64,000 bases of DNA, taken from the IMG/VR virus record IMGVR_UViG_3300025715_000024, positions 5,456-69,455 of that record. One strand, written 5' to 3'. The DNA comes from a virus (taxonomy: Duplodnaviria > Caudoviricetes). A program made the translations under genes and the position numbers. The notes beneath the pieces are model-generated. The model saw only the letters and a program-made list of their open reading frames with translations, was not told the origin of the DNA and did not search any database. Positions 3,724 through 13,320 of the stretch are shown here, in pieces (the stretch's first letter is position 1; each line of letters starts with the position of its first letter).

Positions 3724-4542
3724 ATGAGGAAACGATACGACAGAAATGGAACAATGATTGACCCGATGGCTTTACCTGAAGAAAAAACGGTTAAGGCAAT
3801 GACCAAAGGCGAAAAATGCTCGCCGGTCACTATTCATGACATTTTCGCTCATCGGACAGAGGCGCAATTAACCAGTAAAGTCATGGGCAAGGATGCAGGC
3901 TTTAAGAGCTGTTTTGACAAGCTCAAAAAGGACATAAAGATGATGAGGGAAAGCTATTACAGGGGAAAGGATATTCGGAACGGATGGGAATTAACCCTTG
4001 ATGAATTTATGGACTTAACCGCTTATTACAAGGCGTTTTTTAATGGGTGTACACGTGATTCAATGCGCCTCTTGCTTTTGCAGACTCGCCGCGACATCTG
4101 CAACATTGATACAGCTGACCCGAATCGCTATAAAAAACGCAAGTATAAAGGAACTGAGGGTGAACGGTATTCAGACGAAAAACAACCTATGTTTTTATGT
4201 GAGGCTAAAGACAGGCTGACTCCGCTTAAATCAACCCTGTATAGCAACTTTTTTGAGTATATCGCACGAAAGCGCCTTGGCGTTGTAGCGACTACAACCT
4301 ATTATTTTTATCTCAATGAAAGGCGCGCCTATGATGATAAGTTCATTGCACCTTTTATCACGGCTAAGGCCATCAAGTTCCAATATCAAAATAAGGATAT
4401 TGACTTGCATAATTGGATGAGCGTGACCAAGGAAAAGGGCAGGGAGATTAACACACCCAGTAAATTAATCGAACTGGCCGCGCAGGAAACCAACATCAAA
4501 TCCAATAAACCATTAAAGCCTTATACAAGGAGGAGGAGATAA
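3724..4542 (+). CDS. Hypothetical basic protein
   Basis: Long ORF (295 aa from 3655; start uncertain). No recognisable motif. Confidence 0.6.
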   Translation: MRKRYDRNGTMIDPMALPEEKTVKAMTKGEKCSPVTIHDIFAHRTEAQLTSKVMGKDAGFKSCFDKLKKDIKMMRESYYRGKDIRNGWELTLDEFMDLTAYYKAFFNGCTRDSMRLLLLQTRRDICNIDTADPNRYKKRKYKGTEGERYSDEKQPMFLCEAKDRLTPLKSTLYSNFFEYIARKRLGVVATTTYYFYLNERRAYDDKFIAPFITAKAIKFQYQNKDIDLHNWMSVTKEKGREINTPSKLIELAAQETNIKSNKPLKPYTRRRR

Positions 4543-4544
4543 TC

Positions 4545-4844
4545 ATGGCGCATTTTTACGCAGAGATTCAAGGAGCGCGCGGAGAGGCCACACGCTGCGG
4601 CGATAAACACAGCGGCATCAACGGCCACATAAGGGGTTGGGATATTGGCGCAAGTGTGCGGCTCCACTATGATGAAAAAACAGGTTTGGACACTTGCCGG
4701 ATATTTCTCACCAGTGGCAGTAATGGAAATCATGCAAGCGTATGCCTTGGAGAATTTACTTCTGAGGCATTTACCAAGCCGGTTGAAGTTCCACTGGTCA
4801 GACCATTGACTGTCTTGAAAAAGGCAGAGAAGGGGGTGGACTAA
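4545..4844 (+). CDS. Conserved phage hypothetical protein
   Basis: RBS AGGAGGAG. MAHFYAEIQGARGEATRCG...GWDIG resembles a common small early phage protein. Confidence 0.7.
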   Translation: MAHFYAEIQGARGEATRCGDKHSGINGHIRGWDIGASVRLHYDEKTGLDTCRIFLTSGSNGNHASVCLGEFTSEAFTKPVEVPLVRPLTVLKKAEKGVD

Positions 4845-5266: not shown

Positions 5267-5466
5267 TGGGAAAAGAAAACGTCATTATTTACCAACTTGT
5301 CGCATTTCAAGAGGCAAGAGAGAACCCTGATGGAACCTTTACAACGGCTGAGCTTATCGGCAACACGAACCAAGTAAAGGCCAAGAAGGTCACGATTGGT
5401 GACAAAGAATACCTCATCTTTAATGGAAAGGTCACGATTGGTGACAAAGAATACCTCACAGGTTAA
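5266..5466 (+). CDS. Hypothetical protein with duplicated KVTIGDKEYL
   Basis: 31-bp perfect direct repeat at 5386-5416 and 5428-5458. Confidence 0.5.
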   Translation: MGKENVIIYQLVAFQEARENPDGTFTTAELIGNTNQVKAKKVTIGDKEYLIFNGKVTIGDKEYLTG

Positions 5467-11681: not shown

Positions 11682-12119
11682 ATGAGCTTCTATAACATGG
11701 TCCACGGAGTTACCCCCGCAGCTCTTTTGATTCTCCCGATGCTTGGGAAGCACCCGGACGAGTATCCGCGGTTCAGGGATTGCTTCCTGGCTGACCAGGA
11801 GCACCCTGAATTTGATGACCACATCCACGTTTTTACGCGTGTTGGTGGTGGAAATAGGGGCTGCGGCTTTGGAGAGGAAGAGCTATATAAGCATCCGGAA
11901 TACGTCACGACCTTTGATGACTCTTTCGATAGCACATACGCCTCTTACGTATTTAAGGTTCCGGAGAAGTGGAAGGCTGATTACGATAAGATGAAAGCCG
12001 GAAAGTATCATGAGGTCTCTCAAGAGTATAAGGACGAGATATTAAGGATTTATCCGACTATGAAGGAGAAAATAGAAGGTTTTTTCAACAAGAAAAAGGA
12101 GGCAGGGGAAAATGGCTGA
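11682..12119 (+). CDS. Conserved phage hypothetical protein
   Basis: MSFYNMVHG...YPRFRDCF...IHVFTRVGGGNR...DDSFDSTYASYVF, RBS GAGG. Confidence 0.7.
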   Translation: MSFYNMVHGVTPAALLILPMLGKHPDEYPRFRDCFLADQEHPEFDDHIHVFTRVGGGNRGCGFGEEELYKHPEYVTTFDDSFDSTYASYVFKVPEKWKADYDKMKAGKYHEVSQEYKDEILRIYPTMKEKIEGFFNKKKEAGENG

Positions 12120-12333
12120 GCTTACTGACAAAGAAGTGGCGACAAGGTTTACATATCACCCGCCGAACGCATCGCAACTGCCGCGCTATCAGTTACTTCG
12201 GAGGAGTGGACTGGAGCTGGCCAGTATAATTAATCGGTTATGCCCATCATCGCGTGAGACTGCCTTGGCCTTTACGAGGTTGGAAGAGGCCATAATGTGG
12301 GCAAATGCTGCCATCGCCCGAAGGGAATCATGA
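12112..12333 (+). CDS. Acb2/Tad1-like helical hairpin protein (candidate anti-defence nucleotide sponge)
   Basis: RFTYHPP N-terminus and SRETALAFTRLEEAIMWANAAIAR C-terminus. The latter resembles the Tad1 C-terminal helix as I recall it (S-R-E-x-A-x-A-x-T-x-x-E-E-A-x-M-W). Confidence 0.55.
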   Translation: MAELTDKEVATRFTYHPPNASQLPRYQLLRRSGLELASIINRLCPSSRETALAFTRLEEAIMWANAAIARRES

Positions 12334-12653
12334 AAATAACCGCCATCACAAAATTAAAACAGGGCGACATTTACCTGGCAATGCGGGAGCTTGGATGGAG
12401 TCAGCAAGAATTGGCCGATGGCGTCCTGGAACGCCCCATCCGTGCACAAACCATGCAGGGACCCCGCGTCTCCTTAATACGTTCTGACGCGATTTTGCAG
12501 GGCAAGGAGCTGGGGTTTACACTCAACCTCATCCCCCATAAAGAACTTAACAAAGACCTTCTCAAAGAATTGTTGGAGTATGGGATGTTTAATGGCCTAG
12601 GTCAGTGGCGCAGCGGTTCCTATGGGCAATTTGAAGTTGTTTCCTTTAAATAA
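12330..12653 (+). pseudogene. Chimeric ORF: XRE-HTH N-terminus fused to the C-terminal part of a RAMP/Cas7-like protein
   Basis: About residues 1-29 read MRELGWSQQELAD (first half of an HTH). The rest reads GVLERPIRAQTMQGPRVSLIRSD...LLEYGMFNGLGQWRSGSYGQFEV, ending in a RAMP-type glycine-rich loop. Confidence 0.6.
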
Positions 12654-12657
12654 TTTT

Positions 12658-12680
12658 GGATGGGGGCGAAAGCCCCCTCC
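12658..12680 (+). other. GC-rich GAAA tetraloop hairpin at the head of the pentamer array
   Basis: GGA-T-GGGGGC-GAAA-GCCCCC-TCC, with no U-tract after it. Confidence 0.75.
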
Positions 12681-12692
12681 TACGCAAAGTTA

Positions 12693-13144
12693 TGGCGAAG
12701 CGCAGATGGGTCGTGTGGTGGTATGGCATGGCGGAGCAATGCCGCGCCTGGGCATAGTAAGTTCATGTGGAGGTAAAATTAAGTGGAGTCTGGCGCAGGC
12801 AAAGCCAAACGATGTATAGCCTAGGTTGGGCACAGAACTGTGGGGCAACACCATGTTGCGGTAGTGCGCCGTCGCGTTGCGGTATTGCGGTCCATAGAGA
12901 TGCACTGGTTTTGTTTGGTAAGGCGATGAGAAGTGACGGCATTGCATTGCAGGGCGCCGTTATGGTTTAGCTTGGTCGGGTGTGGTATGGCGCAGCGTGG
13001 GCATGGTAAAGTCTAGCCCAATAAAGGCATAGTTTAGAATTGTGTTGTGGGGGTAGGGCATAGCCAGGAAACGCGCAGCATAGGTTGAGCGCGGCACAGC
13101 ACGGTCTAGCTTCGGTGTTGTGCGGCCCAGTTGAGTGGTGGTAA
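12693..13144 (+). ncRNA. NGY-NN pentamer array (VIPR/vrRNA-like candidate guide RNA array)
   Basis: Hand parse of 12693-13138 gives 86 pentamers in 16 blocks. 74 of 86 start NGY (34 GGY, 20 AGY, 15 TGY, 5 CGY). The last two bases vary. No credible ORF. Directly follows the RAMP-like gene. Confidence 0.7.
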
Positions 13145-13320
13145 TGAACAAGGATACCTGGAACCAAACGATTAACGCAGATATGGGATGTGTATGCCGA
13201 TATGACATGCACATATTTTACAGCACGCGGCGTGGTGAAATTCCGCGCTGCATTAAATGTGGACAGAAAGAGGTGAGGTATGGAAGAGATAGCAAAAAAA
13301 ATATTCGAAAAAGCAAATGA
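13144..13320 (+). CDS. Small Zn-ribbon-like protein
   Basis: CVC and RCIKCG motifs. Confidence 0.4.
   Translation: MNKDTWNQTINADMGCVCRYDMHIFYSTRRGEIPRCIKCGQKEVRYGRDSKKNIRKSK

Follow-up and report, generated by a model that had tools for sequence, protein, structure and literature searches.

A staggered VIPR guide-RNA array with an extra G at every block border, carried behind a truncated vipr gene in a phage genome

The window analysed here is a stretch of 64,000 nucleotides from a Caudoviricetes record (IMGVR_UViG_3300025715_000024, positions 5,456 to 69,455), and it contains a VIPR guide-RNA (vrRNA) array of the staggered layout. The five-base units of this array are grouped into blocks, and at each block border the phase of the units shifts forward by one base through an extra G. 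This G is probably the point at which one Vipr filament stops and another begins; the evidence presented below and the literature favour the reading of the borders as borders between individual guides. The array is as follows:

12684..13144, + strand: tail-less staggered VIPR vrRNA array with 17 blocks of 4-7 units, a 2-unit lead-in and an extra G opening each block.

VIPR is built on a lone Cas7-like protein, Vipr, which is phage-borne and polymerises on vrRNAs of GGY/NN repeats with one protomer per five-base unit (bioRxiv 10.64898/2026.04.26.720920; 10.64898/2026.04.26.720927; 10.64898/2026.10.15.759431). Silencing by the Vipr filament is directed at DNA that fits the NN pairs and skips one base in each unit (2026 VIPR preprints). 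The structure of the type II filament revealed that two adjacent protomers hold one GGY and that the pyrimidine pocket sterically excludes purines, and the DNA-bound filament has five subunits, roughly 25 RNA nt, per turn (bioRxiv 10.64898/2026.04.26.720927). The alternative repeats NNNGG, YNNNG and NNNNG are mentioned in the accessible part of one of these preprints, and "staggered arrays", in which vrRNAs with YNNNG repeats overlap by 1 nt, are described there in the main text and in the legend of fig. S18 (bioRxiv 10.64898/2026.04.26.720920). The same part of the preprint states sRNA-seq confirmation for the ribozyme-interspersed and single-vrRNA layouts and makes no such statement for the staggered one (bioRxiv 10.64898/2026.04.26.720920). 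The staggered layout is thus already named in the VIPR literature, and the window provides a further example of it. As judged from its sequence, the array is tail-less, successive blocks are offset by one nucleotide and the end of one block is the start of the next.

On the plus strand, positions 12684-13144 consist of 88 units of the form N-G-Y-N-N, 76 of which have a perfect GY. The array was parsed by dynamic programming that chained GY anchors and penalised four- and six-base steps equally, which removes the freedom of parsing by hand. The GY-anchored parse gave 71 five-base steps, 16 six-base steps and no four-base step from 12684 to 13135, and a 17th slip at 13139/13140, the last of the array, marks its closing end. 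The parser itself has no bias towards +1, since both signs of slip were recovered equally from synthetic arrays with equal +1 and -1 slips (1620 six-base and 1577 four-base steps). An earlier reading of the stretch, made from the letters alone and hereafter called the sequence-only reading, had claimed that the phase shifts by +1 and never by -1, and this was borne out (17 against 0 slips; sign test, p = 1.5e-5). The borders it listed and its block sizes (5,6,4,5,5,7,4,5,6,5,7,5,5,6,6,5 units) were the same in the independent parse. Its starting point, 12693, lies within the real array but is preceded by two further units (12684-12693), so that the true start is 12684. In the parse of the sequence-only reading, G occupied position 2 in 81/87 units and C/T occupied position 3 in 81/87, and the other positions were variable. 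The self-identity of the array peaked at lags 5 and 10, then at 16, 21, 26 and 31, and then at 47, 52 and 57; this series implies that the pentamer phase drifts by +1 about every 26 nt.

The unit after each slip was GGY at all 17 block starts, as had been claimed, against 18 of the 70 remaining units (Fisher p = 9e-9). A recount of GGY over the whole array gave 35/87, where 34/86 had been given. The slips themselves were correctly located by the sequence-only reading, but the base that it marked as the extra one turned out to be unbiased (A5 C4 G3 T4 over 16 block ends, tallied by eye). The invariant letter of each slip lies one position downstream and is the G immediately 5' of GY. These border Gs are found at 12694, 12720, 12751, 12772, 12798, 12824, 12860, 12881 and 12907 in the first half of the array and at 12938, 12964, 13000, 13026, 13052, 13083, 13114 and 13140 in the second. 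Because a G is invariant at the slip, the slip is best written as NGYNN -> NGGYNN. The border G occupies the slot where the old phase expects a scaffold G.

The array was not seen by Tandem Repeats Finder, an Rfam search that included the CRISPR repeat families matched no family in it, and a promoter scan found no sigma-70-like promoter in front of it. The stability of its RNA fold was not clearly above that of shuffled sequences (z = -1.9). A protein-coding reading of the array was rejected on account of the period of 5 and of short frames that overlap on both strands with no long ORF.

The identity of the array follows from its neighbourhood and its relatives. The features directly upstream are the following:

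12112..12333, + strand: Acb2/Tad1-hairpin-domain protein, 73 aa (PF24729, E 1e-19; phrog_1454).
12330..12653, + strand: chimeric ORF, 107 aa; residues 1-29 are an HTH/sigma-like start and residues 30-107 are C-terminal Vipr.
12658..12680, + strand: GC-rich hairpin with a GGGGGC-GAAA-GCCCCC core, lying in the gap from the ORF stop to the start of the array.

The last 78 residues of the chimeric ORF match the C-terminus of a group of 155-187-aa proteins; residues 30-107 represent the C-terminal thumb and the glycine loop (GLGQWRSGSYGQF) of a 187-aa Vipr. The equivalents of residues ~110-187 survive in this remnant, and the RAMP fold has lost its N-terminal half. Over its first 29 residues, the ORF shares 79% identity with the N-terminus of P0005, an HTH/sigma-like protein of 185 aa. 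The 187-aa homologues carry the motifs ERPLRAMTxQGPRV and GLGQ[FW]RxGxYGRF, with which the C-terminus of the remnant ORF aligns, and an alignment showed the thumb and glycine-loop motifs to be kept in 12 homologues. One full-length relative (P0002, 187 aa) is 59% identical to the remnant in the window. Its structural model (pLDDT 87) had its best Foldseek matches among Cas7, Csm3, Cmr4 and type VII Cas7 chains, with E down to 7e-6 and probability 1.0. According to this model, the Vipr relatives of the window are Cas7-like RAMP proteins with a predicted RRM core, thumb and glycine-rich loop. The clade counts at least 455 homologues in metagenome contigs, and in 75/78 related loci vipr is directly followed, on its own strand, by a GY-pentamer array. 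It is the RAMP fold of the relative, the family motifs and the downstream same-strand arrays that identify the array in the window as VIPR. A sequence search of the PDB returned no Vipr, and a nucleotide search of isolated phages gave no match. A TRAP-like or other array of RNA-binding sites was considered and dropped, given the RAMP partner and the published vrRNAs.

The grammar of the array is shared by the clade. Among 78 arrays located beside full-length Vipr homologues, 5061 five-base, 1045 six-base, 61 four-base, 13 three-base and 16 seven-base steps were counted. The base before GY was a G at 947/1045 six-base steps (91%), compared with 27% at five-base steps. The sequence-only reading had named indels of both signs without enrichment of GGY in homologous arrays as evidence that would speak against it; what the homologues displayed was one-sided slips with a G there too. 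Blocks in the clade had a mode of 5 units, and 823/1057 had 4-7 units; a further 143/1057 (13.5%) had 1-3 units. The border could be summarised by the consensus GY-a-a-n-G-GY-A. The first variable base past the border was an A in 66% of cases, against 37% within blocks, and the corresponding value in the window was 65%. The unit preceding a border had a perfect GY in 99-100% of cases.

Substitution rates were computed over six orthologous pairs of arrays. The scaffold G had changed in 0.3% and the border G in 1.4% (1/70) of the positions compared. The Y had changed in 9.7%, nearly always by a C/T transition, and the variable positions in 5.1, 6.7 and 8.2%. Judged by these rates, the border G is under purifying selection as strong as that on the scaffold G.

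The reading that we prefer may be depicted as follows. Each five-base unit would be bound by one Vipr protomer, which would sequester the G-Y (GGY in type II) and present the variable bases to DNA. The border G, standing in scaffold phase, would satisfy the last protomer of the upstream filament. The next base in phase would then be a G where a Y is required, and the filament would be unable to continue in phase. The same G would serve as the first G of the complete GGY(A) unit with which the following guide begins, in a phase shifted by +1, and this shared border G would be the published "1-nt overlap". The array would thereby give rise to 17 short guides, each 4-7 units long, with limits set by phase where type II vrRNAs have a 3' pseudoknot tail; the scheme would also include processing at the borders and silencing of matching DNA. 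This model accounts both for the one-sidedness of the slips and for the identity of the extra base as G.

The sequence-only reading had offered three explanations of the borders: processing sites, marks of filament register or kinks, and boundaries of separately acquired guides. The idea of guide borders has gained from the selection on the border G, from the extended consensus and from the literature, and the idea of separate acquisition has fared badly, as duplications cross the borders. Its concern that a trinucleotide spacer might lead a simple decoder to miss the true targets was partly apt: in this clade the scaffold is GY in most units, and GGY is regular only at block starts. Some points stand against the preferred model. 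Guides of 4-7 units would hold only 8-14 informative bases under the NN rule, far less than type II guides with their 9-16 units. The 13.5% of blocks with 1-3 units in the relatives are too short for guiding. Finally, the phage's own vipr is truncated, and the searches for natural targets turned up nothing convincing for any block of the array.

The truncation bears directly on whether the array functions in this phage. Protein and profile searches found no intact or second vipr in the 69.5-kb genome, which has direct terminal repeats. The HTH-vipr fusion locus was identical in five other contigs from different samples and is therefore not an assembly artefact; the six copies were identical apart from one SNP outside the array, and the sequence was present in wastewater and activated-sludge runs. 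As no fewer than five further contigs of other samples carry the fusion unchanged, a single deletion is fixed in this phage lineage. The array begins 31 nt past the stop of the remnant ORF. The hairpin that lies between them has no T-run downstream and was not called by a terminator scan, and it could be a putative processing or stability element. At the other end of the array, a small ORF (13135-13320, with its ATG at 13145) would encode a zinc-ribbon-like CxC...CxxC pattern and overlaps the start of the next gene. The RNA data consisted of three metatranscriptome runs and one probable DNA run, in the form of assembled contigs, which give neither ends nor levels; those from RNA extend over the upstream genes and over 12595-12900 and leave 12910-13125 uncovered, and nothing is concluded from this coverage.

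The stop of the upstream Acb2/Tad1-domain gene overlaps the start of the chimeric ORF, and the two are translationally coupled. We take the Acb2/Tad1-hairpin domain to be that of a sponge family for CBASS/Thoeris signals, and this neighbour places the array in an island of anti-defence or competition genes.

With Vipr truncated, the guides of this phage would act only with Vipr supplied in trans from another element, or else the array is a recent relic. It is conceivable, though we hold it for the less probable case, that the array is a non-functional relic, orphaned by the deletion that truncated vipr, with a punctuation inherited from a working ancestor. This would fit what is left of Vipr (78 C-terminal residues, joined in frame to 29 HTH residues), the absence of a second vipr from a genome with direct terminal repeats, and the fact that targets were not found. 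The array is, however, no more decayed than those beside an intact vipr, with 86% perfect GY, 17/17 border Gs and the same A bias. Phages that lack vipr, keep solo vrRNAs and use the Vipr of a rival are moreover documented in type II (bioRxiv 10.64898/2026.10.15.759431), and contigs from RNA libraries bridge the end of the ORF and the first 200 nt of the array, a weak hint of use. The six copies examined, being all identical, give no measure of decay. Since the array is no more degenerate than those beside intact vipr genes, it may have lost its partner gene not long ago, or it may be retained so as to exploit the Vipr of a rival, as in the type II 'VIPR-null' phages.

Searches for targets of the guides, within and across blocks, had been proposed by the sequence-only reading, and they yielded no convincing target for those of the window. 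The genome of the phage itself and 12 related loci were scanned block by block and with a sliding window of 10 units, allowing for 0-3 additional bases at borders; the scores stayed at chance level with the exception of one self-match. In this match, array units 40-55 (12892-12974, blocks 8-11) paired with window positions 4512-4559 at 26/32 bases, collinearly across three borders. Its score was 17.5, compared with a maximum of 17.0 in 200 shuffles of unit order and with 10-14 for other arrays. The site comprises the ribosome-binding site and start of an ORF (4545-4844), the ATG of which is mismatched, and the match was absent from two homologous loci of that gene. Exact-pattern scans of a viral collection with blocks 9+10, blocks 10+11, block 11 and the 10-13-unit blocks of relatives gave 0 matches in five scans and a single match in one, and exact patterns that cross borders had no match in that collection. 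Guide blocks did not match the vipr genes of relatives either.

Two candidate matches to phage hallmark genes were obtained. One lies on a viral contig (L105:4926-4954), in the motif ..WHEDDLAGRILAKEKDW.. of a terminase large-subunit gene, where 20/20 paired bases agree with a 10-unit block from a relative (L035). The other belongs to the window:

12964..12999, + strand: block 11, extra G plus 7 clean GY units, of which 20 contiguous variable bases match a capsid gene exactly.

The gene encodes an HK97-type major capsid protein and the match covers the motif ..FIAGDGSG.., ..AAFIAGDGSGKPKG.. in a Rickettsiales MAG (L107:3925-3944). The contiguous scan with block 11 gave 2 matches in total, one of them in an unrelated gene, where about 1 was expected by chance; the chance expectation for the terminase match was about 0.1-0.6, and the numbers of matches are thus at chance level. 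In both candidates the paired bases fall on codon positions 2-3, compared with 1-2 in type II. Adjacent blocks did not match the DNA that flanks the two sites, and the remaining blocks of the window did not match the same capsid gene. The sole unusual feature is the placement in conserved motifs of hallmark genes, and the capsid motif of block 11 is offered as a candidate target class and as a lead only. Stop-codon statistics over 962 blocks gave z = -6.8 (register N4N5N1) when all columns were shuffled, and z = -1.5 (N4N5N1) and z = -3.5 (N1N4N5) when N1 alone was shuffled; the result depends on the null and is confounded by a general TpA depletion, so that no conclusion on the code is drawn from it. 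A joint reading of these observations would be that phase-delimited guides of 4-7 units are aimed at the best-conserved hallmark-gene motifs of rivals (capsid and terminase), that codon positions 2-3 would face the variable pair and position 1 the third variable base, in a register that differs from type II and might read whole codons, and that a phage without Vipr keeps the array to use or misdirect the Vipr of co-infecting relatives. We regard this combination as speculative and rather doubtful.

The self-match across borders would also fit one continuous Vipr filament that would run over several or all blocks; the extra G would then form a bulge roughly once in each helical turn, as a mark of register or kink, and the target would be read across the borders. 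The most frequent block length, 5 units or about 26 nt, would agree with the five subunits and ~25 nt per turn of the DNA-bound type II filament. Blocks of 1-3 units, which exist and are retained in duplicated segments, and the low information content of single blocks would also be easier to understand. We nevertheless consider a continuous filament unlikely. Block size is not fixed and ranges from 4 to 8, and 12-protomer filaments of type II work without such compensation. A mere bulge would need neither a specific G nor a biased first variable base after it. Exact patterns across borders had no match in the viral collection, the self-match is mismatched at the ATG and missing from the gene's homologues, and in the two candidate target matches the adjacent blocks do not fit the adjacent DNA.

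The gain and loss of whole blocks among related phages had been suggested as a further check. None was seen across the six identical copies of the phage locus, and indels of 26-nt blocks were found between clade orthologues. L009:2194-2245 and L010:4694-4714 differ by exactly one 26-nt block indel, located between block starts that share GGTATTG, and the orthologous arrays of L068 and L072 display a 26-nt indel too. The remaining indel lengths recovered from the orthologue alignments were mostly 1 or 0 modulo 5, which means that the grammar of the arrays is kept. The divergence between L009 and L010 was concentrated in single blocks. Duplications within arrays, 26-114 nt long, cross borders and neither begin nor end at them; in L059, L057, L069, L066 and L101 the internal border Gs, and even one-unit blocks, are preserved in both copies of the duplication. 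Unrelated arrays had no block in common. As the duplications cross borders, the arrays appear to grow by slippage and duplication and not by the stepwise acquisition of guides, and blocks seem to be gained and lost through slippage between similar block starts.

These observations leave little room for the view that the borders are junctions from a stepwise acquisition of separate guides, in the manner of CRISPR spacers, which we regard as very improbable. The 26-nt whole-block indels between orthologous arrays and the confinement of most L009/L010 divergence to single blocks would agree with it. The L009/L010 indel, however, lies between starts that share GGTATTG, as expected from slippage, the duplications of 26-114 nt start inside blocks and cross the borders, and no block is shared by unrelated arrays. 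An integrase-like or Cas1-like partner is neither known nor seen; to our knowledge, no acquisition genes exist for VIPR. A signal at the level of DNA, in which a motif recurring at intervals of 5.2 bp (one half of a 10.4-bp helical turn) would phase a DNA-binding protein or curvature, is hardly credible and was dropped given the RAMP partner and the published vrRNAs: its mean period of 5.2 nt equals half the B-DNA repeat, but the motif is strand-specific, lies always on the vipr strand just 3' of the gene for an RNA-binding RAMP and is irregularly spaced in blocks of 4-8 units that do not follow the helix, and the type II RNAs of the family have been demonstrated to be transcribed and protein-bound.

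Compared with known systems, the array is closest to the VIPR staggered arrays, with which it shares a lone Cas7-like Vipr clade, tail-less five-base units, a one-base offset and a shared border nucleotide, as well as a G-Y that alone is fixed in most units (bioRxiv 10.64898/2026.04.26.720920). The accessible part of that preprint treats the layout in a figure legend without counts, consensus or RNA data, and the window differs in that its vipr is truncated (bioRxiv 10.64898/2026.04.26.720920). Type II VIPR, represented by Escherichia phage SUSP1 and a Pseudomonas fulva prophage, has in common with the clade of the window the pentamer code, one protomer per unit, the Cas7-like fold and carriage by phages (bioRxiv 10.64898/2026.04.26.720920; 10.64898/2026.04.26.720927). 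Type II vrRNAs, however, are separate transcripts of ~100 nt with 9-16 perfect GGYNN units, a 3' pseudoknot tail and no phase slips, whereas the array of the window leaves the first G free in every unit that does not open a block, is divided into blocks of 4-7 units and lacks a tail. The glycine loop G-Q-[F/W]-R of the window's family would correspond by motif order, in a comparison made by reading, to D177-W178-R179 of SUSP1, where D177 contacts the first G. The Class 1 CRISPR crRNA on its Cas7 backbone resembles VIPR in the RAMP backbone, in a thumb that breaks the pairing periodically and in a guide array beside the gene. The window differs from it in the lack of CRISPR-type repeats and spacers and of Cas6 or Cas1, in a period of 5 instead of 6, and in guides separated by a single base, where those of CRISPR are separated by a repeat.

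The VIPR-null phages resemble the window in that guides are kept after vipr was lost via a single deletion, and use of a rival's Vipr has been proposed for them ('guns for hire'; bioRxiv 10.64898/2026.10.15.759431). In those phages 1-2 tailed vrRNAs of type II remain and both vipr and vap1 are gone completely, whereas in the window an in-frame HTH-Vipr remnant is followed by a staggered array of 17 blocks.

VIPR, a system for the RNA-guided recognition of DNA, has been described only recently, and a division of its tail-less arrays into guides is proposed here from the grammar of the letters. Relative to the literature, the border consensus GY-aa-n-G-GY-A, the distribution of block sizes, the conservation of the border G and the orphaned staggered array are new. 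The invariant extra G, the border consensus, the blocks of 4-7 units and the selection on the border G together provide a precise and testable rule for calling guides in this clade, and any prediction of targets has to begin with such calls. A puzzle also emerges from the counts, as each guide would carry very little information. Finally, the window adds a staggered-array case of a phage that has kept its guides after loss of the protein, and this bears on the 'guns for hire' form of competition between phages.
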